IMG/VR virus record: IMGVR_UViG_3300026488_000006
Location: 1 to 39,192 of that record
DNA: 39,192 nt
Source: a virus
Strand: one strand, 5' to 3'
The notes under the pieces were generated by a model. That model saw only the letters and a program-made list of their open reading frames with translations, was not told the origin of the DNA and did no database searches. The translations under genes were made by a program, and so were the position numbers. How positions within the stretch are numbered: position 1 is the stretch's first letter; every line of letters begins with the position of its first letter. Below are positions 1 through 39,192 of this stretch, piece after piece.

Positions 1-127
1 CTGCCGGACCGATGTTCCGGGCCTCGACCTCAAGGCGACCGGTGTTCAGCTCGACGGTAGCAGTCCAACGCCCCACATCGGGCTCAACGTTCACGTCGAG
101 AACCTCAATCTTAAACCGCCTCTTCCT
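1..127. repeat. Terminal direct repeat, copy 1 (identical to 39066-39192); circular-permutation overlap
   Basis: Read directly: nt 1-127 are identical to the last 127 nt of the window. Confidence 0.9.
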
Positions 128-137
128 TGGCATTAAA

Positions 138-1802
138 TCACCTCCTAACGACCTGTTTAAGATATGCCGTCGCCTGCGCGAGCTTCGGGCGTAGGAACGG
201 GTAAGGACCGCGGGTTATCACGACGGCCTCGCGGGCGCGAGTTAGGGCTACATACCAAACGCGCACCTCCGCCTCGAAATCCTCGCGGTCGCCCTCTTCG
301 AGCTCCGTGCGAATCCTCGGCGTGATGGTATCGTAAATTATCACCACGTCGGCCTCACGCCCCTTGGCCGAGTGAATAGTATCAATGTAGATTTCACCAG
401 CCGGCTTCTCCATCCGGCCATTAAGCCGAGCGCGCAACGCTTCGAGGGCAACCTCGGCTAAGGACTGACTACCAAGCGCCTCGGCCACCTTCTCCGGCTT
501 GAGCGGGCCGAGCGGGTCGCGGATTATCTTCTCGGCCAGTAGGTTTGATGGGTTAGCTGTGAGAACCTCGACGGCGCGGTCGAGCTTCGGGCCTTCGAGC
601 CCGGTGAGCCTAAGGTAAAAGCGCGCGTCGGAGCGGAGCGGTGGCTTCCTCTCCTTGAGCGTCTCGATGAAGTTCTCAATCCTGTCCACGAAGTCCTTCC
701 ACACCTGCATCCGGCGCGTCTTGAAGCGGTAGAACGGAACGCCCTTCTGGAGGAAGAGCTCTTCGAGGTCCTTCACCTGGCTGTTCGTGCGCGCGAGCAC
801 CATAACGGAGAAGCCCTTCCGCGCGAGGAGCAAGGCGTTGTCCGGGATACTCATAAAGTCTATGTCGCGCATCAACACCTTTCCACCCCGCACCCTCGGC
901 TGAAACTTCTTCGGGTAGCGGTTGCGGACGAAGAGCTTGACGAGGAGCTGTGAGGCGAGGAGCACTTGGGATGGTAAGCGGAAGGAGCGCTTGAGGACGA
1001 CAGTCTCGTCGGCGGGGAACTCGTGGAGCAAGAAGTCCGGAGAGGCGCCCTGGAAGCGGAAGAGCGTTTGGTCATCATCACCACTGATGATAGTAAATTC
1101 AGTGTCCACCATCCAGTTCTTAAAGACCTCCCATTGGAGCGGGCTGAAGTCCTGGAACTCATCCGCGATGAGCACCGGGCGCTCCGGGTGCACATCCGTG
1201 ACGAACGCCAGGGCGAGGATGTCATCGAAGTCTATGATTTTCTCGCGCCGTTTGAACTTGAGCCATTGCTCCGCAAGGACGCCCCACTCCTCGTTTTCAG
1301 CCATCAACTTGTCCACGACACGTCCGAGGTTTAAGAAGCGCGGGAAGTAAACGTTGACGGCGTAAGTGTAGGCGTTGAAGAACTGGTTGCCGGGCAGAGT
1401 CGTGAGCTCCTCGTTGGGGTCATAAGGGACGCCGACCTCGCGGGCGAACTTGGCCTTCCACCAGCCGACGGCCCCGGGCTTGCCGAGCGTCCGGCTGACC
1501 ACCCGGGGCGAGACAATGCGGGCAGAGCGGAGTAGGTGAAGCGCTATGCCGTGCATCGTGCCAAAGAGGCCCGCGCGGTAGCCACGCCGGAAGCCGACCC
1601 TGCCGACGAGCTCGTCAACCGCACTGTTGGTGAAGCTCATAAGGACGACTTCGCGGGGCGAGTAGGCCTTGTGCGGGAGGTCGAGGTCGTACTCTGCGAG
1701 CCACTCCGAAGCGTCGAGCCGGCCGGTTAGGTGGCCGAGTATCTGCGTGAGCGCGTAGGTCTTCCCCGTGCCCGGCGGGCCGAAGATTCGGAGGTTCACC
1801 AC
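138..1802 (-). CDS. Superfamily 1 DNA helicase, UvrD/Rep/PcrA-like
   Basis: Walker A GPPGTGKT; motif II ADEFQDF; motif III GDDDQTLFRFQGA; motif V TIHSAKGREADVV; motif VI VALTRAREAV. RBS GGAGGGGTGAT precedes the GTG start; the gene stop overlaps the RBS of the next gene across the origin. Confidence 0.85.
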   Translation of the reverse strand: MVNLRIFGPPGTGKTYALTQILGHLTGRLDASEWLAEYDLDLPHKAYSPREVVLMSFTNSAVDELVGRVGFRRGYRAGLFGTMHGIALHLLRSARIVSPRVVSRTLGKPGAVGWWKAKFAREVGVPYDPNEELTTLPGNQFFNAYTYAVNVYFPRFLNLGRVVDKLMAENEEWGVLAEQWLKFKRREKIIDFDDILALAFVTDVHPERPVLIADEFQDFSPLQWEVFKNWMVDTEFTIISGDDDQTLFRFQGASPDFLLHEFPADETVVLKRSFRLPSQVLLASQLLVKLFVRNRYPKKFQPRVRGGKVLMRDIDFMSIPDNALLLARKGFSVMVLARTNSQVKDLEELFLQKGVPFYRFKTRRMQVWKDFVDRIENFIETLKERKPPLRSDARFYLRLTGLEGPKLDRAVEVLTANPSNLLAEKIIRDPLGPLKPEKVAEALGSQSLAEVALEALRARLNGRMEKPAGEIYIDTIHSAKGREADVVIIYDTITPRIRTELEEGDREDFEAEVRVWYVALTRAREAVVITRGPYPFLRPKLAQATAYLKQVVRR

Positions 1803-1803
1803 A

Positions 1804-2757
1804 TCACCCCTCCGCGTCGTTCACGTAATCCCAGTCCCCAAAGTCGGTGCGGGTGCGCTCGATAGCCGAGAGAGCCTCATCAATCTCCGAGTGCGCCGGC
1901 TTGAGCTCGCGCTCCGTGAGCTCGACGAAGACCGCCTCTGGCACGAGGTAGTAGTACGGCCTCTTATATCCCACTCTAATCTGGCGCCTCTCGATGCCGA
2001 ACTTCCTAAGCGTCTCCGCGAGCTTCTTGATTGAAGTGATGCCCAGCATTGAGCGAGCCTTCTGACGGACGAGGCGCGCAAGGACGGCGTAGTACTTCCC
2101 GCGCTTGTCCACGTAAATCATCGCCTCGGGCACGGTCGCCTTGTCCTTCGCGCTCTCAAGGCTGATGGGCGGATAGAGGTCGTAGAGCTCTGCCATCAAC
2201 TCACCGACGCCGATGTCATCCTCGCGCACCATCACGGCTTGCTCGAAGGCGCGGGTAATCAACTGTTGAAGCTGGTCAACGCGCTCGCCGTCCTCGGTCT
2301 GATAGGTGCGCAGGATAATTGGGACATTGAAAAGCTCAAGCGTGAAAGAAGCAATCTCGCCGAGGACGGAGCGACGGTCAGAGGCGATGGATTTGACCGG
2401 GATGATAAGAGGCTCGTCCTTGCCGTAGAAGTAGATTTTAAGCTCCCGCGTCGCGCGGTTGTAGAGGATTTTATCCGCAAAGCTCAGCATCAGCGACACG
2501 GGGTCCGTCGCGACCAGCGGGCAGTTCATGATGTCACAGACTTCCGGGGCGACTTGGTTCACGCTGAGGCAGGAGAACGGCCTCGTAGCCCCCTTGGCCT
2601 CGCGGAAGAGCTCGCTCGCGAGGTCGTCCCCGGCCAGCTCGGCCACGTCGTTGTACTTCGGCTGGTACTCGTGGATGTAAGCCAGCACGAGCTCCTTCTC
2701 CTCGCCCGTGAGAGTGCCCTTTTCAAGGAGCGCCCTAATGCACGGAGGGAGGCTCAT
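1804..2757 (-). CDS. Hypothetical protein (317 aa) with a Cys cluster (CLSVNQVAPEVCDIMNCP); possible replication-associated protein
   Basis: RBS GGAGGTGAGGGT before ATG; its stop overlaps the helicase start. Function not recognisable. Confidence 0.6.
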   Translation of the reverse strand: MSLPPCIRALLEKGTLTGEEKELVLAYIHEYQPKYNDVAELAGDDLASELFREAKGATRPFSCLSVNQVAPEVCDIMNCPLVATDPVSLMLSFADKILYNRATRELKIYFYGKDEPLIIPVKSIASDRRSVLGEIASFTLELFNVPIILRTYQTEDGERVDQLQQLITRAFEQAVMVREDDIGVGELMAELYDLYPPISLESAKDKATVPEAMIYVDKRGKYYAVLARLVRQKARSMLGITSIKKLAETLRKFGIERRQIRVGYKRPYYYLVPEAVFVELTERELKPAHSEIDEALSAIERTRTDFGDWDYVNDAEG

Positions 2758-3347
2758 ACCCTCACCTCCATCACCGCCTCGTAGGCGACCTCCTCGCTAA
2801 TGAGCCCCTTATTTATAATATATAGTAGGTATCCAGCAACGTCTCTCTGCCTCAGCGGGAGCTTCACACCACGCCTCCAGAGCTCGTCGAGGAGGTAGCG
2901 CGAGGCGACCACGAAGAACACCTGTGGCTGGCGGAAGTTGTAGTTGAACGGGCCGAGGCGGAGAGTTGGGCCGAAGTGGAACTCCACGACGAGGTAACGG
3001 GCGACCGGTATCTCACCACGCTCAAGGCGGGCGTCCTTGAGCATACGCTTAAAGGCCTCAAAGGGGTCGGCGAACGGACAGGCCTTCCGGCGCTCCTCGT
3101 TGCAGTACTTCTTCAGGTGCTCCGGCTTTGCACCGAAGGGGCACGGAAAGAGCGGGGCGGTGTTCAGCATCGCCCGAATCCCGCGCTTCCTCTGTTCATA
3201 AGTATCGAAAGAGTAGTAGCCGAGGCTCCAGAGGGCCGGCTCAAGCTTTTCGTCGCCGAAGGTGTGGAAAAAGGATAAGAGGTCGTCGAGGGCCTCGGTG
3301 TCGCGGGCGGAGATGGCGTTTTTGACGCACTCCGGGAGCTCACTCAT
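2754..3347 (-). CDS. Hypothetical protein (about 197 aa) with Cys-rich segment (CPFGAKPEHLKKYCNEERRKACPF)
   Basis: Track ORF 2754..3419; start moved to the ATG at 3347, which follows RBS AAGGAGGTGG; the upstream part of the track ORF is probably untranslated. Confidence 0.55.
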   Translation of the reverse strand: MSELPECVKNAISARDTEALDDLLSFFHTFGDEKLEPALWSLGYYSFDTYEQRKRGIRAMLNTAPLFPCPFGAKPEHLKKYCNEERRKACPFADPFEAFKRMLKDARLERGEIPVARYLVVEFHFGPTLRLGPFNYNFRQPQVFFVVASRYLLDELWRRGVKLPLRQRDVAGYLLYIINKGLISEEVAYEAVMEVRV

Positions 3348-3522
3348 CGTGAGCCACCTCCTTGCGGACGACCAGCTTGTCGGCATAAACCTCGACCTTG
3401 ACGCGCTCGGTGTTGCCAATCCACCAGCGCGGGATGCTTATCCTCGGCGAGGTCCGGAACCTCTTGTCGAGGTACATTACCTTCCTTTCGAGGACAGCAG
3501 TCGGCTTCTCCATACGCACCAC
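3340..3522 (-). CDS. Small hypothetical protein (60 aa), first gene of the origin-spanning minus operon
   Basis: C-terminal codons contain the RBS of the next gene and its stop overlaps that gene's ATG (ATGAGTGA); TATA-like ATATTTAAGG lies upstream on the minus strand. Confidence 0.4.
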   Translation of the reverse strand: MVRMEKPTAVLERKVMYLDKRFRTSPRISIPRWWIGNTERVKVEVYADKLVVRKEVAHDE

Positions 3523-3708
3523 CGGGCATTAGTTAGTGCACTTCTCCTTAAATATCTTGCGAAAGCAGTTCCGTTTAACGCCGGCGGGCTTGTTAATTAG
3601 GCAAACACTTCTGTTTAACACTAGGGCAAGAGTTAGGCGCCACCGTTGCTGTGGGTCAGCCAGCCTCGACGGGCGCCGAAAATCCGGGGTAGCCAGCCAC
3701 TCTACATT

Positions 3709-4233
3709 GTCTTCACGTCATCGCAACGGGGCCCGGCGTTGCGGTGATGAAGACACATAGGTTTAAACTTGTCCGTTTTGTTACCCACTTCTGTTCCTAT
3801 GATGTGCTTATGTGGACGCCGAAAAAGGTAGGAGCGGGCTTTTTCGGTGTACAAAAGTGTTCTGAAGACAAAATCGCTTCTCACGAAGACACGTAATAAG
3901 GTGATGAAGACACAAAGGTTGACCTTATCACGGAAACAAGAGAGGGCTTTTTTGCCCATTTTAAAGGTAGGAGAATGCCGTTTCAATGTACAAAAGTGTT
4001 CTGAAGACAAAACCACTTCTCACGAAGACACGTAATTTCGGGCCCTGCTCCACTGACAGTAGTACTGCATCACCATAGGCCAGCATTACCAACGGCGGTG
4101 GCTCAACGCTTTGCTGGAAAAAATGTGCACATCTGGGGAATCAAGGTCAACCCCGTGTCTTCATCACTTTGTTACGTGTCTTCGTGAGAAGCGATTTTGT
4201 CTTCATCACCCCCATTACGTGTCTTCGTGAGAA
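3709..4233. repeat. Iteron array / putative replication origin or master regulatory region
   Basis: Two 49-bp direct repeats (3849-3897, 3988-4036); GTGATGAAGACAC at 3744-3756 and 3901-3913; inverted copies at 4155-4167, 4172-4209 and 4214-4233. At least 11 GAAGACA cores in about 525 bp, switching orientation around a 120-bp centre. Confidence 0.6.
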
Positions 4234-4335
4234 CCCAAAACAAGGGTATTTTTGGCTTATATGGTTAAACATGTGTGGTTTTACGGCGACTGTCTAAAAA
4301 CCGTAAAAAAGAAGTTAAGTCCCGGCGCTGGATGT

Positions 4336-5565
4336 CTAGAGCCACTGCCCCAACCGGTGGTTTTTGGCCACATCGCCAAGCTCCCGCTCAAACCTCCGCC
4401 TTATGATTTCGCAGTAGTCCGGATTCATCTCGATACCGACCCAACGCCTACCGAGCTTCTCCGCCACGACGAGAGTAGTCCCTGCTCCAGCAAACGGGTC
4501 GAGGACTACGCCGTCCTTCGGGCAAGCGACCTTAATTAAGAGCTCCGGGACGTCTGGCGGGAAGACCGCAAAGTGGGCGTCCTTGAACGGGCGGACGTTT
4601 ATTTGGATAACATCATTCGGGCGGACTTTGTAATCCCCCTCTCGTATCTTGCGGGCTATTCCTTCGTTGATTTCTCTAGAGCTCCTCGGATAAAGTTCGC
4701 CCTTGTTGTGAGGGCCAACTCTCCAGCGATACTTGGCTCGTTCCCGGGTCAATTCTGACGGTTCTGGTGCGACGGCTTTCCAATCAAAATAATACTTCGG
4801 CCTCTTCGTGAAGTGGAAGATGTACTCCCAGCTGTGGCTGAAGCGGTCTCTGACTGATTCGGGCATGGCGTTACCCTTCGTCGTCCTGTCTTTGTAAAAG
4901 TGCACTTTCTTTGCCCAGATTATTTTCTCCCGCAGAATCCAGCCCTCGTCGTAAACCATCTTGACGGCGAAGAGTTCAGGCACGAGAGCGAGGGACTTTT
5001 TCTTTAGTCCATCTGGCCACGCAACCTTTGGGACGTTGCTCCTCCCGTTCCACTTCGGGTCGTTGTCGTTGCCGAGACCATAACCGTGCCCACCACCAAC
5101 CCACGTGTCGTCAATGTTCACGAAGAGGCTCCCCGTCGGCTTGAGGACACGCTTGACCTCACGGAAAATCTCGACGAGGTGCTCGACAAACATCTGAGGA
5201 GTCGGCTCAAGGCCGAGCTGTCCATACCACGCCCCGCACTTCTTACAGATGAGGGCCGTCCGCTTGTTATACTTCTTTATCCGGGTCGTGCCCCTCGCTC
5301 CGACCACTTCGTCCTGCTTCCCGCGGACGTTGTTTCTGTTCTCGTGCTGAAGGCCAACTTCTTGCCCCACCCACTCGTGGTCGCAGTCCGGGTCGCCTCC
5401 AAAGACGGTGAACGTGGCGTCGCCGTAGTCCCTCTTGGCCCAATAGGGTGGAGAAGTAATTACCACATCCACGCTCTCATCAGGGAGATAGCGGAGCACT
5501 TCGAGGGCGTCTCCACAGTAGAGCCTGCCGAGCCGGGTTTCGAAGTAGGGCTCCATTCCAACCAT
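4336..5565 (-). CDS. DNA methyltransferase, beta-class amino-MTase (N6-adenine or N4-cytosine)
   Basis: Motif IV SPPYW near the N-terminus and motif I DPFAGAGTT near the C-terminus (order IV then I is the beta class). Track ORF 4336..5586; likely start is the ATG at 5565 after RBS GAGGTGGTG. Confidence 0.85.
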   Translation of the reverse strand: MVGMEPYFETRLGRLYCGDALEVLRYLPDESVDVVITSPPYWAKRDYGDATFTVFGGDPDCDHEWVGQEVGLQHENRNNVRGKQDEVVGARGTTRIKKYNKRTALICKKCGAWYGQLGLEPTPQMFVEHLVEIFREVKRVLKPTGSLFVNIDDTWVGGGHGYGLGNDNDPKWNGRSNVPKVAWPDGLKKKSLALVPELFAVKMVYDEGWILREKIIWAKKVHFYKDRTTKGNAMPESVRDRFSHSWEYIFHFTKRPKYYFDWKAVAPEPSELTRERAKYRWRVGPHNKGELYPRSSREINEGIARKIREGDYKVRPNDVIQINVRPFKDAHFAVFPPDVPELLIKVACPKDGVVLDPFAGAGTTLVVAEKLGRRWVGIEMNPDYCEIIRRRFERELGDVAKNHRLGQWL

Positions 5566-19049: not shown

Positions 19050-19709
19050 TCACACCCCCGTACCCATTAGCTCGTTCCACCTCTTTGATGCGTACTCAAA
19101 TAGGTCGTCTCCAACGAGCTTTTTAAGCCACATCGGGGCCTCGTATGGCTCAAGGAAGGTGTATATCTTGCAGGCCTTCTTGCCCTCGATGAGGGAGTCA
19201 ATCTTCTTCGTGTCCCTGATGACGCGGTAGGAGTACTTGGCGATGTCGAAGCTGAGCATAGCGTAGATGTCCTGGCCACTTTGGTTGCTTATCTTAAAGC
19301 TCGGGTAGAGGTCGAGGAAGGTTATTAGCTCAGCCCTAGCGTCCGGGTCCTCGAACGGGCTTATTATGCCGTCAATCCACTTTGTCTTGCCGGGCACTGA
19401 ACGAGTGCCACGGAGGCTGTACCTGGCGACCCTTGGCGGAAAGTCGAGGTAAACCTCCGCCTCTTCTGGCGCAACGCCGACGAAGGTGTGCAGTATGAAC
19501 CTCTCGCGCTCGGGCTCAAGAACTCTATCGTTCGTCCCTGGGAAGGTTGGTTCAATCCAGTCGGTGGTCTTGCCGGCCTGAACCACGCCAACCTCGTACG
19601 GCTCGTAGCTCATTATTTCTCTACCTGTCACCCTAAAGAACACGGGGCCCTCACGGAAGGCCACCGCGAGGTAGTGTCCGGGCTTAAGGAATTCTGGCTT
19701 TTCGCGCAT
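19050..19709 (-). CDS. Hypothetical protein (about 219 aa)
   Basis: Track ORF 19050..19724; ATG at 19709 after RBS GGGAGGTGGTGA; TATA-like TTATTTATAA about 95 nt upstream on the minus strand. Confidence 0.5.
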   Translation of the reverse strand: MREKPEFLKPGHYLAVAFREGPVFFRVTGREIMSYEPYEVGVVQAGKTTDWIEPTFPGTNDRVLEPERERFILHTFVGVAPEEAEVYLDFPPRVARYSLRGTRSVPGKTKWIDGIISPFEDPDARAELITFLDLYPSFKISNQSGQDIYAMLSFDIAKYSYRVIRDTKKIDSLIEGKKACKIYTFLEPYEAPMWLKKLVGDDLFEYASKRWNELMGTGV

Positions 19710-19831: not shown

Positions 19832-20515
19832 TCAGAAGTGGGTCTTGAAGAACCTACCGCGGGCGACGGTGAATCCAAGGAGCTTCAGCTCGCCGGTGGT
19901 CGGGCTGGAGCTGTTGGCGTCCGGGCTGTGAACCTCAATCTTGTAGTAGTCCTTCGGAACAATGGGGACGCTGTTAAAGTTCCAGACGGCGACGCCGTTC
20001 CTGTTGTCCTTTATGACGGCGTTGCTAACGTCAATCGGCAGGAGCTGTCTCTGGCCGACGGCGAACCTAATGCCGTCAATCCTGGCGGTGACGTCGGTGC
20101 CGTCGTAGAAGTCAACGATACCGAAGATGAGGTATCCGGCGTCGTCGTGTGCGGTGCCCTCGGCGAGGGTCTTCCACTCGGCGTCGAAGCTGACCTTGAA
20201 CCTGTCGCCGTAGGCAGTGACGCCGGCGCCGAGGGTGCTGTTCCCGCCGTTGTCAACGAAGTGGCCTGGCCTAAGCGGGGTGAGGCCAATCTCCATGTCT
20301 GACGCAACCTGGCCACCGAACTTGGCGCCACCGAGGCTGTGCTTGACAGCCTCAACGAAGCCCCTTATCTGCCTCTTGTAAGTCTGGAGGAGCTCGTAGA
20401 TGACGCCATCCTTGGGGCCGAAGAGGTTGTCGAGCTGGGCGTTCAGCTTGGCCTCTTCCTTCGGGTCGAGTGGAAGGGTGTTAAGGTCGGTGTCAATAGA
20501 CTCGAACCTAACCAT
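19832..20515 (-). CDS. Hypothetical protein (227 aa), candidate virion protein
   Basis: RBS GGGGGTGAAGAGCA before ATG at 20515. Confidence 0.55.
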   Translation of the reverse strand: MVRFESIDTDLNTLPLDPKEEAKLNAQLDNLFGPKDGVIYELLQTYKRQIRGFVEAVKHSLGGAKFGGQVASDMEIGLTPLRPGHFVDNGGNSTLGAGVTAYGDRFKVSFDAEWKTLAEGTAHDDAGYLIFGIVDFYDGTDVTARIDGIRFAVGQRQLLPIDVSNAVIKDNRNGVAVWNFNSVPIVPKDYYKIEVHSPDANSSSPTTGELKLLGFTVARGRFFKTHF

Positions 20516-22721: not shown

Positions 22722-25700
22722 TCACCTCAGCTCCTTCCTCAACTCCGCAACGAACTTTTCATATATCTCGTTGAACGGCCAGGGGAATTCTGGCTCGTAG
22801 CCAAGACTCTTCAGCACCGTCGCGGGCACCACTGCGACCAAGTAGAACATCGTGGGCTCGCAAAGCCAGCCCTTCTCGTTCTCTCCGAGCTCGTCCTCAA
22901 ACTTGACCTGCACCGTGAAGTGGTTGTAGTCCGCCTTGTGGCAAATCTTTCTGTGCTTTCTGAGGAAAGCCAGCACGGCAGTACTGTAAGGCTCGCCCGC
23001 CTTAGCATTCCTCTTCAGCCATGCACGTATGAGGCTCGCAACCTTCCTATATACCTCGTGGATGCCACCCTCGACCAGAGCACCGCCCGCCTGCTCCACA
23101 GCGTATAGCGCCATCGCTTCGGCGAACGTCAGCGGGGCCCTCTTCTTCCTGTCTATGTACTCGCCGATGATGTTCTCCCCGAGCCACTTCTTGAGAAAGT
23201 CGGCATACATGCTGGCGTCCGAGTGAGTCTTGGCCTTCTCCTTAAGGTAGCGCTCAACGCCATACCACAGCATAGCTGAGAGCTCGCGCGGGTCTTCGAG
23301 GGCCCGACTGAGCCACTCCGGCACCTCGCCGAGGTACTGGTAGATGTTCTTTGGCTTCGATAGTTCTTTCCTCCGCTCGACTATCTCAGTTGCTGAAACC
23401 ACCCCACCCGAGCGCTTCTTCATCTCGACCGGGAGCTCTCGGCGCCCGACCTTTTGGTTGTACACACTTGTGGCCAACTTCGAGGCTTCGATGACGGCGC
23501 TGTCGAACGGGAGCTCGCCCTTGGCCACCATATCCGCGAGAACCCATAGGTCGCGCTCGATGTCGGGGAGCACGAAGTCGAGGTCAATGTTGCGCTTGAG
23601 TAGTCTGCGGTCGAGGCTCTTGAGTAGGCGCTCATAGGTGGCTCTAACTTCCTCTGGCACTTCCGGTGCTCTTCTTGGCTCAATCTCTTCGCTTATGGCC
23701 TCTTCTTCCGGCGTCAACTCCTTCACCTCCCTTTCGGCCCTGCGCTCGGGTTTTGCACCCAGCATTTTCTTCGCTTCCTCGACCTTCGCCTTCGGCAACG
23801 CCTTCCGCGCCTCCTTCATCACGATGGCCATCGCCCTCGGCTGGGTGAGCCTGCCTTCATAGACCTCGCGGGCGAGGCGCTCGATGAGCTCAAGCGGGGG
23901 CTCCGGCGGTCTGACATCGTGGAGCTCGAAGTAGCCTTCCCAGGTGTCGGTCAGCTTGCGCCTGATGAAGCGGAGGTCTTCCTCCTCCTGCGTCGCCATC
24001 TCGGCGACTTCTTCGAGCGGGAGCTCCGTCGCCTCGCCGTGCACCTTGACCGGGACCTCAACCTCCTCAAGCGGGGCCCCCTCTTTCTCCCCGGCAATAG
24101 TTCTCACCATGGACTCCTCCGGGATTTCGGCCTTCTGCTTCTCCTCCAGCTCGGCCTCAAGCTCCGGTAGCTCTTCCGGTGCCGGCGGTAAGTATTCCTT
24201 CGCCAGCTCGCGGACGTGGCGTGCCCATTCTTCCGGCGTCATCCCGAGGCGCCTGGCGAACTCTTCATCATTGGCCAACTGCTCGACCACTTCCTCGGCG
24301 CTGGTGGCACCGTACTGCTCCGGGTGCTCAAGGGCGTCGCGGATGTAGTCGTCAACCTGCCTCAGCAACTCGGCCCGCTCTTCCGTCTCAGTTGGCTTGA
24401 GCTTCCACCTCATAACCTCGGCTCCAGCCCTCGCGAGGAGCGCCTCCTCCTTGTTGGTCGGGAGCGTCCGGGCGTAGTGGACGAGCATATCATAGACCGT
24501 ACGGAACGGGTAGTAGTCGAGCTTCTGCCAGTCATAGTCTTCGACCTCGCTCGGGCTGATTGCGCCGAGGAGGACGAGCGTCTTGGCCACGCGCTCCGGC
24601 GTCGGCTTTAGGCCGAGGTAAAAGCCGAGCTGGGCGCGCTCTATTGAGGGCTTCGGCTTCTCCTCGCGGGCGGGCTTAGGCTCTGGCTGTGCGGACTTGG
24701 CAGTCCCCGGGACTTCTCTCGGCTTTTCCACCTTCTTCTTGCATTTTTCCACCTGTGGTGCCAGGAAGCGCTCAAAGTACGTAGTCACCAGCTCCTGTAA
24801 GTAGTTGGCTTTGACAAAGTTTAGGTGGCCGGGCTTGAGCTCGCGACGGACGACGTTGTAATACCCGCGGGCGTTGTCTGAGATGTGGCACACGCCGTTG
24901 GGGTAGTGTTTCTCGGGGTACAAAAACTCCTCACGGACGCCGAACTCGCGCTCAAGGTGGCGGGCGAAAACGTCCCTCGGAGCTGTCTTGGCGAACTCCT
25001 CGACTTGCTTCGTGAGCTCCGGCGTCACGTAGCGGACGTTGTAGTTTGGCTCATAAGACTCCGATTGTTTTGCTAATGCCTCAAGCTCAGCCTTTACTCT
25101 GTTGAGCGTCTCCCGCACGTCTTCCATCTGCTCCTTGAGCTCCTCGTCGCTCACGCGCGGGTTGCCTATCATCCTCCCAAGCACGCGCACCTTCACCTTT
25201 AGCGAGTTCTTAATGGTCGTGCTTAGCTTCCAAGGGAGCTTTTCCGGCAGGTTCTTGCGGAGCTCTTCGTATTCCTTGATTAGCTTCCTGGCCTCTTCCT
25301 CAAGCGCAAGGCGCTTTTCCGCCTCGGTGCCGGCCTTTGACTTAACGCCCAGCCCGCTCGTCAGGTAGCCGACGTATTTGCAGAAGTCCGGCATATTGGC
25401 GTCCTTCCACGTGAAGTTGGAGAGGTACTGGGCGAGGTAGAGTATCTCGCGGTCGAGCGGGTTGGCGCCGTGCCACTTGGGGATTTTTCCACGCTTTATG
25501 TCGGCACAGGCCATATCGAGCGGTATGAGCACGGCTTTGACCGGCTCGACCTTCCCGGCGTTGTAAAGCTTCCACGCCATAGCCGTGAGCGCCATGAGCT
25601 CCCTAAGCTTCTTCAGGCAGTCGTAGGGGCTCCTGCTGTCCCTACACAACTTATCGTAGTCGGTCCTCAATAGGATGAGCTTTCCGCCCGACAGGCACCA

Positions 25701-27761
25701 CCCAAGCTTTTTGCGCTCTATGAACTCACATATCTCGTCCGCCGAGACCTCCGCACCCATCCTGGCCAGCCTGCTCACCAGCCCCGGTAGCGTGTCCCAG
25801 ATTGAGAAGACCGTTGGGCTCTTGTTTAGCTTCTCGTCAATTATCTTCATTAATTCCTCGCGCCAGTCCACCTTTTTCGGACTCAGCCTCTCCAGAACTT
25901 CCTTTGTGAGCTCACGGGCGAGTGAGTGGACGCAGGGAACGTACTTACGCGGGTCTTTTCCACGACCAACCTCACAAACCCCGTCGAGCTCGATGGTCTC
26001 GCCGTTCACCCTTGCGCTCAACGTGATGTAGGCGCCGTGTAACTGCCCCAACCTCATCGTCAGCTCGAAGTCGCCCACCGCCGTCTTGACGAGCCACGTT
26101 TTTTCAGCCTGCGTGTCGCTGTTCCATTCCTTGACTGCCTTCCAGTCCAACGGGGGCTTCCCGGTCTCGTGGAGCACTACCTCGTACACCCCGTCGTAAA
26201 GCGCCTTCCGAGCATTCTTCCATACCTCGTTCCAGGGCTCCTTGAGCTCCGGCGGGTTAAGGCGGACTTCGCCGAACTTCTTTGAGAGGCCGGGAACGTT
26301 CATAGTGCGCTCGATGATTTCGAGGGCGTCGGCGATGGCGTTATCAGTCAGCTTCCTTACCCACGCCTTCCGCTTCGGCGACCAGCGGAACCCGTGCGCC
26401 TTGAGCTCGCGCCTAACCTCTGCCGGCGGGGCGCTCGTAAAGACCACCCAGAGCCTATCGTCGGCGTGGTTAGCAATGATTTTCCAGCCGTCACCCTTGG
26501 CCAACACCTGAACACCGCTTGTCGTGCCCTTGGCCTGCGCTTCTTTTTTCTCTAACTCCTCAATACGGGCCTTGAGGCGCTTTATTTTTTCACCAACACG
26601 GCGGAGCTCAAAGTCGGGGAAACCAATCCTGCCCAGCTCGTCCGGCTCCGGCCAAAAGAAGAAGTGGCCGGCCTCTGCAACTTTAAATGCGCCAATCTCT
26701 TTAAGCTTCCTCTCCTTCTCTTCGGGCGTGAGCTTCTTTGAGCGGATGATTTTGTTCGCTTCCTTCATTATCTCACGGCGCTTTTCGAGTATCGCCAACT
26801 CTTCCTTTAACCTCTCCAGTTCGCCAACGGCCTTTTTGTTCACGGCGCCCTGCTTCAGAGCTTCCTGCTCCTTCTTCAGCTCCTCTGCCAATTTATCAAG
26901 CTTCTTAAAGGCGTTCTTGATGAACTCGTCGAGCGCTGACAGCTTCCTATGTTCAGTCCGCCAGAGCTTTTCGAGCCGGTCTTGGCTCGGCATCCTCGCC
27001 GGCCCAACCACGTGGGCGCTCGGAATTCTCGCCCTCGTCGTTAAGTAGTCCTCATAAAGCTCAATGTAGCGCTTCGAAAAGTTTTGTATCAACCTCTTCG
27101 CCCGTTCGGGGCCGATGAGCGGGCAGAGCTTCTGCACCTTCTCAGCGTAGCGGTTCAGAGTGCGGAGGTAAGAGAGCTGGTCATACTCCGCGTCTTTCTC
27201 CGGGGTCCACGAATTAATAGAATACGCGCCCTTCGCCCGCTCAAACGGGAACGGTGTAACTTTGACGGGGATTATATCAGCCTTCCCGCCATAGTAACAC
27301 TCGATTTCAAGCGTCCAATTGTCCTGAATAAACGGGCCCCGTTCCCGCTTCGCCCTAACAACTGTCAAGATTTTATCAACGGGGCGCTCAAGCTCTTCTA
27401 CAAGAGAGTTCAATTGCGGGAGCTCGGATTTAAGCCTCTCAATAGCACCCTTGAGCTTCTCAACGTCTTCTGGTGTGAATTTATAGCGCCCAATGTCGGC
27501 CTCTCTCATTAAGTCGCGGTAGCGGTCAATGAGCTTATTCACGGCCACCCAGTCCCTCCACAGCCTCAAGAACTCCTCAACGCGCTCTTTCATCCCGGGC
27601 GGGAACTCCTCGCCGGCCTGTCTAATCTCATCTATATGTTCCTTGAGCCATAGGGCGCGGACGTAGTTCTTCATATCCTTTGTTCCCGAGAACCACCCGT
27701 TTTCGGCCCGGATGTCGTTAAACTCCCAGATGAGCTTTTGGACTTCATCGTACAGGTTCAC
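22722..27761 (-). CDS. Giant multidomain protein (1,679 aa) of unknown function
   Basis: Uninterrupted 5 kb ORF; GTG start at 27761 after RBS GGGGGTGGTGGC; coiled-coil-like and highly acidic/basic segments; no Walker A, no polymerase or primase motif that I could confirm. Confidence 0.7.
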   Translation of the reverse strand: MNLYDEVQKLIWEFNDIRAENGWFSGTKDMKNYVRALWLKEHIDEIRQAGEEFPPGMKERVEEFLRLWRDWVAVNKLIDRYRDLMREADIGRYKFTPEDVEKLKGAIERLKSELPQLNSLVEELERPVDKILTVVRAKRERGPFIQDNWTLEIECYYGGKADIIPVKVTPFPFERAKGAYSINSWTPEKDAEYDQLSYLRTLNRYAEKVQKLCPLIGPERAKRLIQNFSKRYIELYEDYLTTRARIPSAHVVGPARMPSQDRLEKLWRTEHRKLSALDEFIKNAFKKLDKLAEELKKEQEALKQGAVNKKAVGELERLKEELAILEKRREIMKEANKIIRSKKLTPEEKERKLKEIGAFKVAEAGHFFFWPEPDELGRIGFPDFELRRVGEKIKRLKARIEELEKKEAQAKGTTSGVQVLAKGDGWKIIANHADDRLWVVFTSAPPAEVRRELKAHGFRWSPKRKAWVRKLTDNAIADALEIIERTMNVPGLSKKFGEVRLNPPELKEPWNEVWKNARKALYDGVYEVVLHETGKPPLDWKAVKEWNSDTQAEKTWLVKTAVGDFELTMRLGQLHGAYITLSARVNGETIELDGVCEVGRGKDPRKYVPCVHSLARELTKEVLERLSPKKVDWREELMKIIDEKLNKSPTVFSIWDTLPGLVSRLARMGAEVSADEICEFIERKKLGWCLSGGKLILLRTDYDKLCRDSRSPYDCLKKLRELMALTAMAWKLYNAGKVEPVKAVLIPLDMACADIKRGKIPKWHGANPLDREILYLAQYLSNFTWKDANMPDFCKYVGYLTSGLGVKSKAGTEAEKRLALEEEARKLIKEYEELRKNLPEKLPWKLSTTIKNSLKVKVRVLGRMIGNPRVSDEELKEQMEDVRETLNRVKAELEALAKQSESYEPNYNVRYVTPELTKQVEEFAKTAPRDVFARHLEREFGVREEFLYPEKHYPNGVCHISDNARGYYNVVRRELKPGHLNFVKANYLQELVTTYFERFLAPQVEKCKKKVEKPREVPGTAKSAQPEPKPAREEKPKPSIERAQLGFYLGLKPTPERVAKTLVLLGAISPSEVEDYDWQKLDYYPFRTVYDMLVHYARTLPTNKEEALLARAGAEVMRWKLKPTETEERAELLRQVDDYIRDALEHPEQYGATSAEEVVEQLANDEEFARRLGMTPEEWARHVRELAKEYLPPAPEELPELEAELEEKQKAEIPEESMVRTIAGEKEGAPLEEVEVPVKVHGEATELPLEEVAEMATQEEEDLRFIRRKLTDTWEGYFELHDVRPPEPPLELIERLAREVYEGRLTQPRAMAIVMKEARKALPKAKVEEAKKMLGAKPERRAEREVKELTPEEEAISEEIEPRRAPEVPEEVRATYERLLKSLDRRLLKRNIDLDFVLPDIERDLWVLADMVAKGELPFDSAVIEASKLATSVYNQKVGRRELPVEMKKRSGGVVSATEIVERRKELSKPKNIYQYLGEVPEWLSRALEDPRELSAMLWYGVERYLKEKAKTHSDASMYADFLKKWLGENIIGEYIDRKKRAPLTFAEAMALYAVEQAGGALVEGGIHEVYRKVASLIRAWLKRNAKAGEPYSTAVLAFLRKHRKICHKADYNHFTVQVKFEDELGENEKGWLCEPTMFYLVAVVPATVLKSLGYEPEFPWPFNEIYEKFVAELRKELR

Positions 27762-29688: not shown

Positions 29689-29747
29689 CCTTCTTTTTTT
29701 CGCCCGCTTTATAACCCGGTTATAATTTCTCACAACCGGGTTTTGCC
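29689..29747 (+). terminator. Terminator-like element: oligo-T plus palindrome TTATAACCCGGTTATAA and AACCGGGTTTTGCC
   Basis: T9 run immediately after the operon's last stop; about 80 percent identical to 30326-30382. Confidence 0.45.
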
Positions 29748-30382: not shown

Positions 30383-30512
30383 AAGGAAGGACACGTAACC
30401 CTCACCCCCAACTCTATGTTTAAACTCCCGCAACCCCGACCTTTACAGATGCAAAACCTTAAATACCCCTTTTGCAAAAATCTTATACGAACAACGTCAA
30501 GGGGGTGGCACT

Positions 30513-32779: not shown

Positions 32780-32987
32780 ACCGAACCCCAAGACAGTCGC
32801 AGTCTTCCGCTGGCTCGCCCAGACGCTCCGGGCGGGCTACAACAACCCCGCCGTGCTTTTGAAGGCGAAAGATGAGATAAAGAAAAACGAAAAGGTGATT
32901 GAGGGGGCGGTGAGGGATGCCATTCGGCCCGAATTTGAGGAATACGTCGAGCTCGTTAAGTCCCTCCTCGGCGGAGGCTCAGCTTGA
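32772..32987 (+). CDS. Small hypothetical protein (about 71 aa)
   Basis: Track ORF 32736..32987 begins at a TTG; an in-frame GTG at 32769/32772 follows RBS GGTGAGGGTG and is the more likely start. Confidence 0.45.
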   Translation: MAEPNPKTVAVFRWLAQTLRAGYNNPAVLLKAKDEIKKNEKVIEGAVRDAIRPEFEEYVELVKSLLGGGSA

Positions 32988-33306: not shown

Positions 33307-33713
33307 GCCTCGAACTCATGCGCCGATGGGTCGCCTCGCTCCCGCCGGCGGAGCGGTCGCTCCCACTCCTCCACGTGGGCGAGGCCTTCTACACACCATT
33401 GCAAGCGCTCCGAGAAGTTGAAAAAGGTACAACGATTGGTGAAAAACTACAACAGCTCGTAGAGCAAGGGCGCTTTGGGACGGACTTAAACGCCCTTGCA
33501 AAGGCCCGCCTCCAGCTCCTCCTTGAGCGGGCGAAGGGCTACGAGATAGCCTCGCTCAGCGGGATAAGCATTCCCACTGACAAGCTCGCCAAGCTCGTGG
33601 CTCAAGGCGACCTATCAAATCCACTCATCCAAGAGCTCGCGGAGGCCGACCTCCTTCTCGCCCAACAGGCGCTCAAGCTCGGTAAAAAGCTCGCTGGAGG
33701 TGGTGGGAAATGA
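33303..33713 (+). CDS. Hypothetical protein (136 aa)
   Basis: RBS GGGGGTGGGCAG before GTG; GTGA overlap; Gly-rich C-terminal codons form the next RBS. Confidence 0.55.
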   Translation: MSLELMRRWVASLPPAERSLPLLHVGEAFYTPLQALREVEKGTTIGEKLQQLVEQGRFGTDLNALAKARLQLLLERAKGYEIASLSGISIPTDKLAKLVAQGDLSNPLIQELAEADLLLAQQALKLGKKLAGGGGK

Positions 33714-33997
33714 CGCCGGCTGAGCTCCTCGCTCAGGTTGAGGCGCTCCTCGACGCGGGGCGCTACAACGAGGCCCTTCGGCTCCTCGCCTCGGATAGGG
33801 CACTCTACCAGCGCGTCACTCAGGGCGTCATCAGGGCCCTTGAGAGCGACCCCCATGGCATCATCACGGACATAAACGGCAACGTGTGGCGCACGAGCGA
33901 CCTAATCCGCTACGTCAGAGCCGGCCACTGGTTCGGCCCGCTGTTCAACCTGCTCCGCTCCGAGGTCGAGCTCCTCCGGCGCCAGCTCGGGGGGTGA
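33710..33997 (+). CDS. Hypothetical protein (95 aa)
   Basis: RBS GGAGGTGGTGGG; ATGA overlap. Confidence 0.55.
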   Translation: MTPAELLAQVEALLDAGRYNEALRLLASDRALYQRVTQGVIRALESDPHGIITDINGNVWRTSDLIRYVRAGHWFGPLFNLLRSEVELLRRQLGG

Positions 33998-34767
33998 CGC
34001 CCTTGCTTTACATTTTGCCGACCACGCACGGTGTTGACGTGCCGAGCACGATAATGAAGAACGTCGCGCCCCAGATTGACGAGAGCCCGATAATCCTCTG
34101 GGACGGCGAAGCGACCGCCGAGAACGCCAGGAAGGCCATCCTTGGGCACAACCCGCCGTACATTTTCACGACCGGCCATGGGCTCCCGTGCGCCACCACG
34201 CTCCAGGACTTACAGCCGTTCATCAGCCTCGCAGAGCCCCAGATGAGCCCCTACTGTAAGGCCGAGCGCAACCTCGACATCGTGAAGGGTCGCGTCTGGC
34301 ACGTCCACTCGTGCTGGTGCGGGCTCCAACTCGCACAGGAGATGGTCAAAAGGGGCGCCTGGGCGGTCTTCGCCCACGACAAGGAGTTTTTATTCCTTAT
34401 GCCCAAGACGGGCAAGATTGACATCATTACCGCCACGCCGTTTCTCGCAGAGTTCACCGTTGACAGTGCAATGCTCAGCGGAATGACCGCCGGCGAGGCG
34501 CAGAAGGCAAGGGAAAAGGCCTATGACCATTGGCTCGACTACTTCCTCAAGGGCGAAGGGCAGAAGCTCGACCCGGCCCCGCTCGTGGCGCGCATCGTCC
34601 TCGCCGACAAGATGATTAGCAAGCTCTACGGCGACCCGACAGCAACTGTAACAAAGCCCGGACCAAGAAAGACCTTCCAGCTCGGCCTCCCTCTCGATAG
34701 GCCAGTGGGCGGTTCCGCCATTTGGCTCGCGCTCCCCGTGGCACTCCTGATGTTTGCAAGGGGGTGA
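33994..34767 (+). CDS. Hypothetical Cys/His-containing protein (about 257 aa) with C-terminal hydrophobic anchor
   Basis: Track ORF 33886..34767; in-frame GTG at 33994 overlaps the upstream stop (GTGA); conserved-looking His/Cys residues (HGLPCATT, HSCWCG); C-terminal AIWLALPVALLMF. Confidence 0.5.
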   Translation: MTPLLYILPTTHGVDVPSTIMKNVAPQIDESPIILWDGEATAENARKAILGHNPPYIFTTGHGLPCATTLQDLQPFISLAEPQMSPYCKAERNLDIVKGRVWHVHSCWCGLQLAQEMVKRGAWAVFAHDKEFLFLMPKTGKIDIITATPFLAEFTVDSAMLSGMTAGEAQKAREKAYDHWLDYFLKGEGQKLDPAPLVARIVLADKMISKLYGDPTATVTKPGPRKTFQLGLPLDRPVGGSAIWLALPVALLMFARG

Positions 34768-34771
34768 GCCT

Positions 34772-34939
34772 ATGGCGAGGCGCGACACCACCGCAATCCT
34801 CAAACGGCTAAAAAAGCGCCTCGACCGGGCGAGAAAAGCCCTCCTCGTTGAGGACAGCGCCACGGCGCTGGAGCACGTGGATTGGGCAATCCTTGAGCTC
34901 GAAGAGCTCGCCGAAGAAAGTGCGGAGGTGGGAGAGTGA
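34772..34939 (+). CDS. Small hypothetical protein (about 55 aa)
   Basis: Track ORF 34754..34939; ATG at 34772 after RBS GGGGGTGAG. Confidence 0.45.
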   Translation: MARRDTTAILKRLKKRLDRARKALLVEDSATALEHVDWAILELEELAEESAEVGE

Positions 34940-35295
34940 TACCGCCGAGCTGGGCCTACGGGATAAGTACGGGAAGCCTGCTAACGATGCTACTCGGCGT
35001 CCTCCTCGGGGCGACGCTCGGGACCATCATCGGCACCGAGATTGCTTACCGGCGCACCGAGCGGTGGCTACGAAAGCTCCTAACAGACAAAGAGTTTCAG
35101 AACCTCGCCGTCGGCTGGCTCAAGCGGACGGCTCAGCAGTTCGAGAACGAGTACGTGAAACCGAAAATCGAAAGCGAGGAGTTCCGCGAGCTCGTCAGGA
35201 AGGCGAAAGAACAGGCAATGCAGGCGCTCCTCGGGCCGGGCGAGCCCCCAACCGACGTGCCGAGCCTTGATGACTTCGTAGGGGGTGAGGGGTGA
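34936..35295 (+). CDS. Membrane protein (119 aa) with N-terminal TM helix
   Basis: RBS GGAGGTGGGAGA before GTG; hydrophobic N-terminus LLTMLLGVLLGATLGTIIG. Confidence 0.55.
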   Translation: MIPPSWAYGISTGSLLTMLLGVLLGATLGTIIGTEIAYRRTERWLRKLLTDKEFQNLAVGWLKRTAQQFENEYVKPKIESEEFRELVRKAKEQAMQALLGPGEPPTDVPSLDDFVGGEG

Positions 35296-36320: not shown

Positions 36321-37130
36321 TCACACATTCGAAATCACCTCAGTAAGGCTTTTCTGACGGGAGTTTTGGAACCCATCTAATAACCGAACCCAATGGAGTA
36401 CTCTCTGTCGTATCTGCATCCAGATAGGCTTAGAGTTCTTCACGCGGTCAATACCATACCTATATGCCAAACTGTCCGCCGAGTAAAGAGCTTCTCTCAC
36501 GTCAGGATACCTGAGCACTCCAAACTTTACTCCAAAAGCGTGCAACTTAACCCTCCTTGGTGTCGCTTCTCTTATTGCGAGTATGTATCTCCGTATTTGC
36601 GGTTCTTGCCCGCGCCGGCACATTGTGCCGAGGCCGAGAAGTTCAGTCAGGAGACCATGCTCCTTCATATAATCGAGCATCCAGAGATAGTCGTCAAGCG
36701 CCCACCCCTGCAATACTGCCACAAAGTGCTTCTTAAGTTCAGGATACTGGTCGTCAATTAGATTCTGAATTACAATCTGGTTTTCTATCGTTTTCATCTG
36801 ATTTTCTCGAACCGTGCGACCCCACTTCTTGCGGACTTCCGGTTCGCACGGATAATCCCTATTCGCAAAGAGGACATTCTCAAAGCGTCCAGAATTGAGC
36901 TGACGAAGGACAAACTCAAGGTAGCGCTCGTGTGGGTCCGGGTATTCTTGCATGCGGTAAAAAAAGCTGAAGCCTCCGCTGTCAATGAACAACCAGCTTG
37001 TGTTCCTAGGTGGGGTTCTAACTCTGGAAGCATAGTTAATCATAACATTGAACTTGCGCGGAGCGAGGCTTTCAAATGCCTTTTTTGCTGAACCATCCCC
37101 CACACCAAAAAAGAAACTAAACACGGCCAT
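36321..37130 (-). CDS. TGT-family transglycosylase, DpdA-like (7-deazaguanine DNA transglycosylase candidate)
   Basis: Motif WLFIDSGGFSFF matches the tRNA-guanine transglycosylase active-site motif (E. coli Tgt ILTDSGGFQVF); downstream blocks align loosely with TGT (VAVLQG, LLGLGTM, YSADSL); no CxCxxC...H zinc site. Track ORF 36321..37271 starts at a TTG; ATG at 37130 follows RBS AGGAAGGAGCGTG. Confidence 0.7.
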   Translation of the reverse strand: MAVFSFFFGVGDGSAKKAFESLAPRKFNVMINYASRVRTPPRNTSWLFIDSGGFSFFYRMQEYPDPHERYLEFVLRQLNSGRFENVLFANRDYPCEPEVRKKWGRTVRENQMKTIENQIVIQNLIDDQYPELKKHFVAVLQGWALDDYLWMLDYMKEHGLLTELLGLGTMCRRGQEPQIRRYILAIREATPRRVKLHAFGVKFGVLRYPDVREALYSADSLAYRYGIDRVKNSKPIWMQIRQRVLHWVRLLDGFQNSRQKSLTEVISNV

Positions 37131-37296
37131 CACGCTCCTTCCTAAGTGTTGCAATAAAGCACTCGTCGAAAAACTCACAAGCTTCACAGAGCGAGTCGCC
37201 CTGAAAGTCTCCAAAGCAAGGCGGTAGTTCCTCAGCGCCCTCATTGTCGAATTCGCCCCAAACCTCTCCAAAAACCGTTATGAGAACCTTAGCCAC
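37117..37296 (-). CDS. Small Cys-rich protein (59 aa), possible metal-binding
   Basis: Not in the ORF track. GTG start after RBS GGGGGTGACGGGGC, directly after the upstream stop; C-x11-C-x2-C-x5-C; overlaps the dpdA-like start by 14 nt in another frame. Confidence 0.35.
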   Translation of the reverse strand: MAKVLITVFGEVWGEFDNEGAEELPPCFGDFQGDSLCEACEFFDECFIATLRKERDGRV

Positions 37297-37880: not shown

Positions 37881-37891
37881 ACACCCCCGAC

Positions 37892-38395
37892 TTATCCTTC
37901 AACCATTATCCAACGCTCCCGGCGGGCGTACTGCGGGAGCATGACGCGAACCCACCACTCGACGAAGGCCCAAGGCACGTGGTAGCCCTTTCCCGGGACG
38001 TAGAAGTCGCGGGGCTCGTAGCCGTTGCGGTAGCACCACCACTTAAAGTCGTTGCGGAGCGTGTATTCGCCGACGACGTGACGGTAGCGCCTCATCAGCT
38101 CGCTGAGCTTCACGCGCCGGCCCTCGCAGAGCGCATACTCGGTCACGAGGTCAAAGTGCCTATCTGGCTCAGTCGGCGTCCGCTCGTCAACCAGCATCTC
38201 CTCGTAGCGCACCTTTGCCCAGAAGTGGTTCTTGAGCCAGTGCTTTTCGAGGGCGTCAATGTAGTGGTAGGCCGTGTGCACCTGGTAGCCTCTGACGAGC
38301 CACAGGTAGGCAAAGTAGGGGCCGGCCCGGACGAGCCAGCCGTGGCGGAGGGTTAGTCGCTTAAACTTACCCATAGACACCACCCTGCGAGCCAC
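37892..38395 (-). CDS. Trp/Tyr-rich hypothetical protein (about 160 aa)
   Basis: RBS GGAGGTGG upstream; true start probably the ATG of MGKFKRL. Confidence 0.5.
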   Translation of the reverse strand: MARRVVSMGKFKRLTLRHGWLVRAGPYFAYLWLVRGYQVHTAYHYIDALEKHWLKNHFWAKVRYEEMLVDERTPTEPDRHFDLVTEYALCEGRRVKLSELMRRYRHVVGEYTLRNDFKWWCYRNGYEPRDFYVPGKGYHVPWAFVEWWVRVMLPQYARRERWIMVEG

Positions 38396-38472
38396 CTCCT
38401 TCGGTAGAACTTATGTTTAAACTTATTAAAAGCTTTGCGGTTGGGGAATGCAAAGGTAGGATTTTGCAAAAG

Positions 38473-39192
38473 TCAATGCTCGGGGTAAGCCACGACTAAA
38501 AACGGGCCGACGCACCAAGTGTCGAGGAGCGCGAACTCGTAAACCGGCGTGTAGCCGGCCCTCTCGCCGACACGGCGGACTATCTCCTCGGCCTCTTCGA
38601 GGTCGTCGGCCCAGCCCTCGTACTCCTCGCCGGAGACCGTGTTCTTCACCACGATGCGGTAGCCAGCCGGCTTTTGCTTTTTGAACCGGCGCATCTTCTC
38701 CCAGCGCTCCGGCCAGGTCTTCCTCCACTCTGCCTCGCGCTTCTGCCACTCCGAGAGGTCGCCAGTGCGTTTCTCGTTGCGCGGGAGCTGGACGCGCTTT
38801 GAAAGGGCTTTCATCACCATCGCCAGCGCAAACGGGCCGAGCTCCCTGTTGAAAAAGCGGACGCGGACGAAGGCACCGGGGCGCTCAGCAACGAAAAAGT
38901 ACGCGACCTTTGGGTCGTCGGGCAGGGTGGCACCTTCCCTCACGAGCTCGTCCCAGAGCTCGTCGCGACCTGAGCGGAGCTTCCAGCCGGCGAAGTGCCT
39001 CAGCCCAATGCCCAAAAGCGGGCCGAGCCCCTGCCTGTTCATACCCAACAATAGCTTTTCGGCTTCTGCCGGACCGATGTTCCGGGCCTCGACCTCAAGG
39101 CGACCGGTGTTCAGCTCGACGGTAGCAGTCCAACGCCCCACATCGGGCTCAACGTTCACGTCGAGAACCTCAATCTTAAACCGCCTCTTCCT
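38473..39192 (-). CDS. Hypothetical protein (about 241 aa), wraps across the window boundary
   Basis: Track ORF 38473..39159 starts at a GTG; in circular coordinates an in-frame ATG at the position equivalent to 131-133 follows a strong RBS (GGAGGTGATTTA) just after the helicase stop. The first two codons lie outside the window end but are present at 128-133. Confidence 0.55.
   Translation of the reverse strand, partial: RKRRFKIEVLDVNVEPDVGRWTATVELNTGRLEVEARNIGPAEAEKLLLGMNRQGLGPLLGIGLRHFAGWKLRSGRDELWDELVREGATLPDDPKVAYFFVAERPGAFVRVRFFNRELGPFALAMVMKALSKRVQLPRNEKRTGDLSEWQKREAEWRKTWPERWEKMRRFKKQKPAGYRIVVKNTVSGEEYEGWADDLEEAEEIVRRVGERAGYTPVYEFALLDTWCVGPFLVVAYPEH
39066..39192. repeat. Terminal direct repeat, copy 2 (identical to 1-127)
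   Basis: Read directly; implies a unit length of about 39,065 bp. Confidence 0.9.

Follow-up and report, generated by a model that had tools for sequence, protein, structure and literature searches.

Elements of hyperthermophilic archaea from deep-sea hydrothermal vents have been surveyed in a 2026 preprint on Thermococcales (PMC12934983), which proposes 19 candidate families of viruses and plasmids, uses terminal repeats to call genomes complete, and classes communities of elements lacking a recognizable capsid protein as probable plasmids. In that scheme the icosahedral families have genomes of 8-29 kb and an FtsK-HerA ATPase or a double jelly-roll (DJR) capsid protein, the head-tailed families possess the large terminase subunit (TerL), portal and HK97 capsid proteins, and the spindle-shaped, rod-shaped and ovoid families possess alpha-helical capsid proteins. 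Outside this group, Portogloboviridae, represented by Sulfolobus polyhedral virus 1, combine a circular double-stranded DNA (dsDNA) genome of ~20 kb with two single-jelly-roll shell proteins, and few of their open reading frames (ORFs) have an assigned function (PMC8459092). Here we analyze a stretch of 39,192 nt with a G+C content of 57.8%, positions 1 to 39,192 of the IMG/VR virus record IMGVR_UViG_3300026488_000006 (hereafter "the window"), whose two ends are identical over 127 nt. We show that the sequence closes on itself as a unit of 39,065 bp and that the terminal identity is an assembler artifact of a circular path, without biological meaning.

The element resembles the Thermococcales vent elements described in PMC12934983 in several respects. 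It comes from the same habitat and sample series (REYS20, JOHN19; vent metagenomes of the Joint Genome Institute, JGI), exhibits the common "core plus variable" layout, and has a UvrD-like superfamily 1 (SF1) helicase in its replication module, while its relatives, like those elements, carry lectin, DUF2341 and beta-helix proteins in a variable host-recognition locus. Several jelly-roll proteins in the core are a feature of "Shabalaviridae", as here, and 7-deazaguanine genes are found in some of the Thermococcales families. Nevertheless, the element fits none of the 19 proposed families.

Closure of the sequence and the gene at the junction

Positions 1..127 and 39066..39192 are identical at 127 of 127 nucleotides, and the longest exact prefix of the window that recurs as its suffix is exactly 127 nt, in agreement with the preliminary description of this DNA. 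An exact match of this length cannot be due to chance. Trimming of the redundant end copy (39066..39192) leaves the 39,065-bp unit, in which the longest other direct repeat measures 74 nt (88% identity; none reaches 75 nt) and the longest inverted repeat arms measure ~51-55 nt; since no other repeat exceeds 74 nt, the 127-mer is unique in the genome and has no dispersed copy. The value 127 is the largest k of SPAdes, i.e. a standard maximal k-mer, and the identity would represent the k-mer overlap that is left when a de Bruijn-graph assembler prints a circular path as a linear string. In this respect there is no substantive difference from the circular contigs that CheckV-type workflows accept as complete genomes on the basis of a direct terminal repeat, with an exact prefix repeated as suffix and an arbitrary break point.

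The decisive evidence comes from an independent assembly. A search with the 241-aa protein encoded across the junction located a second assembly of the element, the MEGAHIT contig ena:ERZ27262635:k141_279034 (39,206 bp), which was rebuilt from three overlapping pieces (L009, L015 and L001). Its prefix and suffix are identical over exactly 141 nt, which is the k given in the contig name, and its unit is again 39,065 bp long. After rotation and reverse-complementing, this unit differs from that of the window by six substitutions only, all of them located at 29716..29727, inside an intergenic hairpin. The break point of the MEGAHIT contig, with its 141-nt overlap, maps to 34932..35072, ~4 kb from the ends of the window, and its piece L001 passes through the window junction with 14,267 identities in 14,267 positions, no gaps and a single copy of the 127-mer. 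Two further contigs cross the junction in the same manner, at 100% identity, without gaps and with a single 127-mer, namely a Logan contig of 2,577 nt from SRR7968109 (L002) and a JGI contig of 1,264 nt from 3300026382 (L003). Searches for an exact 40-nt junction pattern in IMG/VR and for a two-anchor junction pattern in JGI metagenome contigs gave no matches, both in collections without the window's own record. Because the two assemblies give the same unit cut at different places, the overlap length tracks the assembler (127 vs. 141 nt) and the break point is arbitrary; the same circle with different cuts and different overlaps corresponds to a circular path in a de Bruijn graph and not to physical ends. 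The earlier proposal of a circular or circularly permuted genome of ~39,065 bp, as opposed to one with biological terminal repeats, is thereby upheld.

The artificial cut falls inside a conserved gene. When the minus-strand ORF with its stop at 38473 is joined across the junction, it extends to an ATG at 133..131 and yields a gene of 726 nt encoding 241 aa, which confirms the suggestion that the ORF at the window end continues in frame into the start copy and begins, behind a strong ribosome-binding site (RBS), immediately after the helicase stop. The 5' part (1..133, minus strand) comprises codons 1-44, with the N-terminus MPRKRRFKIEVLDV conserved in the homologs P0002-P0004, and the 3' part (38473..39065, minus strand) comprises codons 45-241 and the stop; the start copy of the overlap lies within codons 3-44. 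Upstream of the gene we find GGTCGTTAGGAGGTGATTTAATG, with GGAGG at 145..141. The Shine-Dalgarno sequence GGAGGTGA, as read at 138..145 (minus strand), contains the TGA stop of the helicase gene (140..138), and the junction gene is translationally coupled to this upstream gene, in the middle of a co-directional block.

An identical 241-aa protein (P0001) is called intact on other assemblies, and its homologs P0002 and P0003 (73% identity), as well as the fragment P0004 (62%), align without interruption across residues 44/45, where the window is cut. The order of helicase followed by junction gene is retained in the strain variant with 93% nucleotide identity (L008, L010), in L004 from the metagenome 3300005095 (an East Pacific Rise chimney study, PMC7329443), in L005, and in L014 (IMG/VR UViG_3300005095_000458). 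Pairwise ratios of nonsynonymous to synonymous substitution rates (dN/dS) are 0.17 against L008, 0.24 against L004 and 0.40 against L005, and remain below 1 in the first 60 codons. The dN/dS values below 1 together with conservation spanning the cut show that the junction gene is a real coding gene under purifying selection. Its product has no match in Pfam or PHROGs. In a more distant relative, L016 (ena:ERZ27262687:k141_945865, 47,387 bp), the helicase gene is directly followed, within positions 1378-3844 of that contig, by the gene for a DpdA-like enzyme, which marks the junction gene as accessory; the 16.8 kb of this contig that were retrieved contain neither the junction gene nor its two downstream neighbors, and the neighbors appear to be accessory as well.

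The hairpin that harbors the six substitutions belongs to a 60-nt intergenic element present twice in the window (29688-29747 and 30323-30382, 80% identity), in which the hairpin (AACCCGGTT...AACCGGGTT) is followed by TTTTG. All six differences sit in the left arm, and the variant pairs the same right arm with another left arm (GTTGTG/CACAAC). The element is probably a terminator or a regulatory hairpin with two allelic folds.

Topology of the DNA and alternative explanations

The terminal identity could in principle be a biological direct repeat of a linear genome with ends at 1 and 39192. The existence of an exact repeat is the only observation in favor of this reading, which we regard as exceedingly improbable: the independent assembly is cut ~4 kb away with a 141-nt overlap and reads through the supposed ends with a single 127-mer, the repeat lies within conserved coding sequence under purifying selection, and its length equals that of the standard maximal k-mer. 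It is also very improbable, in our view, that the circle arose as an assembly error, i.e. from a chimeric or collapsed path or from an integrated element closed via flanking repeats. Co-existing strains in metagenomic graphs can yield false cycles, and strain variants at 93-99% identity do co-occur in these samples, but two assemblers using different k produced the same unit length and, apart from the six substitutions, the same sequence. Moreover, no internal repeat of at least 75 nt is present to mediate a false closure, searches of the window found no integrase, tRNA gene or att-like feature, and relatives retain the gene order around the junction. A genome that is circularly closed in sequence may nonetheless be linear in the virion, i.e. 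permuted and terminally redundant (as in headful packaging), cos-ended, or equipped, at another position, with terminal repeats that exceed k in length. We consider this unlikely, though it deserves to be taken seriously, as the permuted, cos-ended and long-repeat forms all collapse to a circle in short-read assembly, exactly as seen here; weak tail-fibre-like matches in two paralogous proteins (see below) hint at phage-like host-recognition proteins, and the nearest relative of the DpdA-like gene sits in a tailed archaeal virus, vir519. The gene content points the other way. Profile scans against Pfam, PHROGs and NCBIfam covered every ORF of at least 200 aa and detected no large terminase, portal, HK97 capsid protein or integrase; the first three are readily annotated in vir519 with Pfam and PHROGs. 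The helicase is the sole P-loop ATPase, and the conserved candidate structural proteins are modelled as jelly rolls and not as HK97 folds.

Several points weigh against our own reading, a true circle. The assembler of the window is undocumented, and we infer that 127 is its k; the two assemblies may stem from the same or sister libraries, which makes them independent computations but not necessarily independent samples; and an assembly demonstrates that the sequence closes without revealing the topology of the molecule. The same two assemblies would be obtained from permuted linear DNA, from a cos-ended genome, or from a linear molecule whose terminal repeats exceed 141 nt and lie elsewhere. 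That the DNA is physically circular is thus itself inferred, and a true circle is favored because no large terminase, portal or HK97 capsid protein is detected and the sole P-loop protein is the helicase. The replicon would then exist, at least inside the cell, as covalently closed circular dsDNA. Taken as a whole, we have considerable confidence in the following explanation: the terminal identity is an overlap artifact, the 39,065-bp unit is closed, and it most likely represents closed circular dsDNA of a virus-like element of a vent archaeon.

As far as the ends are concerned, the finding is routine and concerns an ordinary assembler artifact. Its practical consequence is small: 127 nt should be trimmed, the record treated as a complete, circularly closed genome of 39,065 bp, and the 241-aa gene annotated across the numbering origin rather than as two fragments.

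Gene content of the element

The genes are arranged in two blocks. A long minus-strand block extends from 27761 downward, across 1/39065, to 35310, with the junction in its middle, and a shorter plus-strand block occupies 27878-35295. K, R and E are abundant in the encoded proteins, RBSs of the GGAGGTGA type precede about half of the listed gene starts, and boxes of the TTTAAA type are found ~20-26 nt upstream of two gene starts; composition, RBSs and boxes fit a thermophilic archaeal host, but only as hints. At least 10 proteins end in glycine-rich tails (GGGG, GGDGQ, GGEG and similar), because the 3' end of each such gene overlaps the GGAGGTGA-type RBS of its downstream neighbor. The long plus-strand ORFs at 12231-12833 and 20837-21613 are spurious and overlap real minus-strand genes in antisense orientation. 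Neither tRNA or tmRNA genes nor Rfam families were found in the window.

The two most conserved proteins of the element are encoded side by side, and both were modelled as jelly rolls. The 219-aa protein (19050..19709, minus strand) consists of a jelly roll with C-terminal helices (predicted local distance difference test score, pLDDT, 95.8) and is the best candidate for the major capsid protein; the 227-aa protein (19832..20515, minus strand), in which N-terminal helices precede the jelly roll (pLDDT 86.5), is a candidate capsid or fibre protein. In a library of 1.8 billion proteins, the family of the 219-aa protein has at least 108 representatives at 50% clustering, and scans of 61 of its members against Pfam and PHROGs gave no match. 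No match to this protein was found in phage and plasmid collections by tblastn, and the family profile retrieved nothing from the PDB in a sequence search. One member, at 33% identity, is encoded within a small module of similar kind on a vent contig of 31 kb; the same contig also encodes a ParA. For the 227-aa protein, a fold search of BFVD gave matches with low template-modelling scores only (fibre, minor-tail and C1q-like proteins), which are not diagnostic. The shell of the virus would be built from these two adjacent jelly-roll proteins.

Both belong to a block that extends from 20967 down to ~16839 and is conserved in relatives (contigs of 26-47 kb), with proteins of 145, 227, 219, 104, 182, 194, 141 and 100 aa. 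It is followed by a variable locus (13526-16835, minus strand), whose content differs between elements: in the window it encodes a 496-aa repeat protein and two paralogs of 234 and 156 aa, and in relatives DUF2341 (ConA-like) or beta-helix proteins. The 496-aa protein contains five C-terminal repeats of ~45 aa (IYELSPxDFSxxRS...GIGG), which look propeller-like, and has no counterpart in the PDB by sequence search. The two paralogs share the motif LGTGSGTPxxSDTGLF and exhibit weak N-terminal matches to tail-fibre-like families (Phage_tail_fib, E 3.3e-4; phrog_4176, 8.4e-5). The proteins of the variable locus are likely host-recognition proteins, and the layout of conserved block and variable locus resembles a virion module followed by host-recognition proteins. 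Farther downstream, at 9550-12136 (minus strand), three consecutive genes encode proteins of 417, 287 and 149 aa with hydrophobic C-terminal anchors, the 287-aa protein with a weak Ig-like match, which suggests membrane-anchored or envelope proteins.

The helicase gene (138..1802, minus strand) encodes a UvrD-like SF1 DNA helicase of 554 aa (PF00580, E 2.9e-17; PF13361, 2.1e-13; PF13245; phrog_1967, 3.2e-58), conserved at 47-99% in relatives. Upstream of it lie two cysteine-rich genes for proteins of 317 and 197 aa (1804..3347, minus strand), which are kept with the helicase in L004, L008, L014 and L016. Residues 3-56 of the 317-aa protein give a faint match to PriL (NF007127, E 0.0027, far below the cutoff) that corresponds to the iron-sulfur domain of this primase subunit and is the only sign of a primase-like role for the protein; a PDB sequence search with the 317-aa protein found nothing. 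A P(P/E)C(I/V)...L helix opens both proteins, and cysteine clusters are present in each. A role in replication is suspected for these genes, whose products may constitute a divergent primase module.

Immediately upstream of the operon of the 197-aa, 317-aa and helicase genes is a non-coding repeat field of 820 bp with lower G+C (3513..4336), in which no gene is called in L001. It contains seven of the nine GAAGACAC octamers of the window (1.4 expected), four on the plus strand followed by three on the minus strand, a 74-nt direct repeat (3824-3897/3963-4036) and 51-nt inverted arms with 96% identity (3863-3913/4155-4205). We regard this field as a candidate replication origin or regulatory region, an origin with an adjacent replication module being likely; replication would start there, driven by the neighboring 197-aa, 317-aa and helicase module. 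The cumulative GC skew, both raw and detrended, follows the direction of transcription and offers no usable origin or terminus signal, and its minimum at 28.4 kb coincides with the divergent gene switch.

Two genes point to modification of the DNA. One encodes an N6/N4 DNA methyltransferase (4336..5565, minus strand; PF01555, E 1.6e-45; phrog_67, 1.4e-68) and the other a DpdA-like DNA/tRNA-guanine transglycosylase (36321..37244, minus strand; PF23859, 1.9e-20; phrog_1279, 2.2e-27), which is 40% identical to its nearest relative, a protein of the tailed archaeal virus Caudoviricetes sp. vir519. The latter passes the threshold of PF23859 (73.5 bits vs. a cutoff of 27) but not that of the NCBIfam equivalog NF041059 (14.5 bits vs. 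a cutoff of 200), and is therefore a member of the family and not an ortholog of the bacterial Dpd-system enzyme. Among the window ORFs scanned there are no genes for preQ0 synthesis (FolE, QueD, QueE, QueC) or for DpdB/C partners, so a modified base would need a precursor made by the host. The two genes together suggest a DNA modification dependent on a host 7-deazaguanine precursor, and the DNA of the element would be protected by DpdA-type 7-deazaguanine modification and methylation.

The first gene of the long minus-strand block encodes a giant protein of 1,679 aa (22722..27761, minus strand; phrog_19458, E 1.4e-34), whose homologs of 963-1,867 aa are found only in related vent contigs. 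Residues ~170-484 align at 26-28% identity with a domain of polyvalent proteins from plasmids and phages, tblastn retrieves YodL/DUF4316 proteins, and the distant homologs P0030 and P0031 carry ArdC-N, ArdA, YodL, M78 peptidase and LPD domains. The giant has no Pfam match, and the other ~1,300 residues are without matches in Pfam, the PDB or NCBIfam. With the polyvalent proteins, i.e. the ArdC-N/YodL/DUF4316/LPD giants of conjugative elements and phages, it thus has only one domain in common. We did not adopt the PHROG label "primase", as no primase family matches the protein and the shared region is the polyvalent-protein domain. The end of a related 26.8-kb scaffold (L024) lies 93 nt upstream of the giant gene that it carries, and this scaffold is uninformative with respect to circularity.

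Nature of the element and its relationship to known families

Deep-sea hydrothermal vents are the source of the metagenomes that yielded the contigs of the element and of its relatives (samples labeled REYS20, SPET22 and JOHN19), and IMG/VR includes two of the relatives among its viral contigs. In two scans of GTDB genomes, neither the helicase nor an alignment of the 227-aa protein retrieved any relatives, and hence neither a provirus nor a binned host was found. Family scans gave no match to Rep, ParA/ParB, a relaxase or the type IV secretion system, novel genes of these kinds being able to escape them; one distant relative (L022) carries ParA. Most likely, the element is virus-like, uncultivated and non-integrating, and its host is a hyperthermophilic archaeon of deep-sea vents; a virus is more likely than a plasmid, without this being established.

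The assignment to known groups is limited by the absence of their hallmarks. A six-frame scan for Walker A motifs found only one within a P-loop protein, that of the helicase, and no FtsK-HerA-type packaging ATPase, which sets the element apart from Singelaviria/Varidnaviria, just as the absence of large terminase, portal and HK97 matches in the scanned ORFs of at least 200 aa sets it apart from Caudoviricetes. Two of the vent families were considered and rejected: "Satanviridae" (29-36 kb, head-tailed), since the element has no TerL, portal or HK97 protein, and "Shabalaviridae" (many jelly-roll core proteins, DUF2341), on account of genome size and of the missing DJR capsid protein. Portogloboviridae are the nearest functional analogy, but membership in this family is not supported, as the sequences show no similarity and the fold scores are of a generic kind.

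We may tentatively picture an undescribed family of hyperthermophilic viruses of archaea for which this element would be the first complete genome, with ~39 kb of circular dsDNA, a virion of two adjacent single-jelly-roll proteins made without an FtsK-type ATPase (i.e. Portoglobovirus-like, outside Sulfolobales), a giant polyvalent-type protein and DpdA hypermodification, a possibility that we hold to be somewhat doubtful. If it is true, the more than 100 diverged clusters of the 219-aa family suggest a sizeable and overlooked group of vent elements. Most proteins of the element are uncharacterized, including the 1,679-aa protein and the widespread jelly-roll family, and its genome can serve as a complete reference for a group of mobile vent elements that has no counterpart in the phage or plasmid collections.

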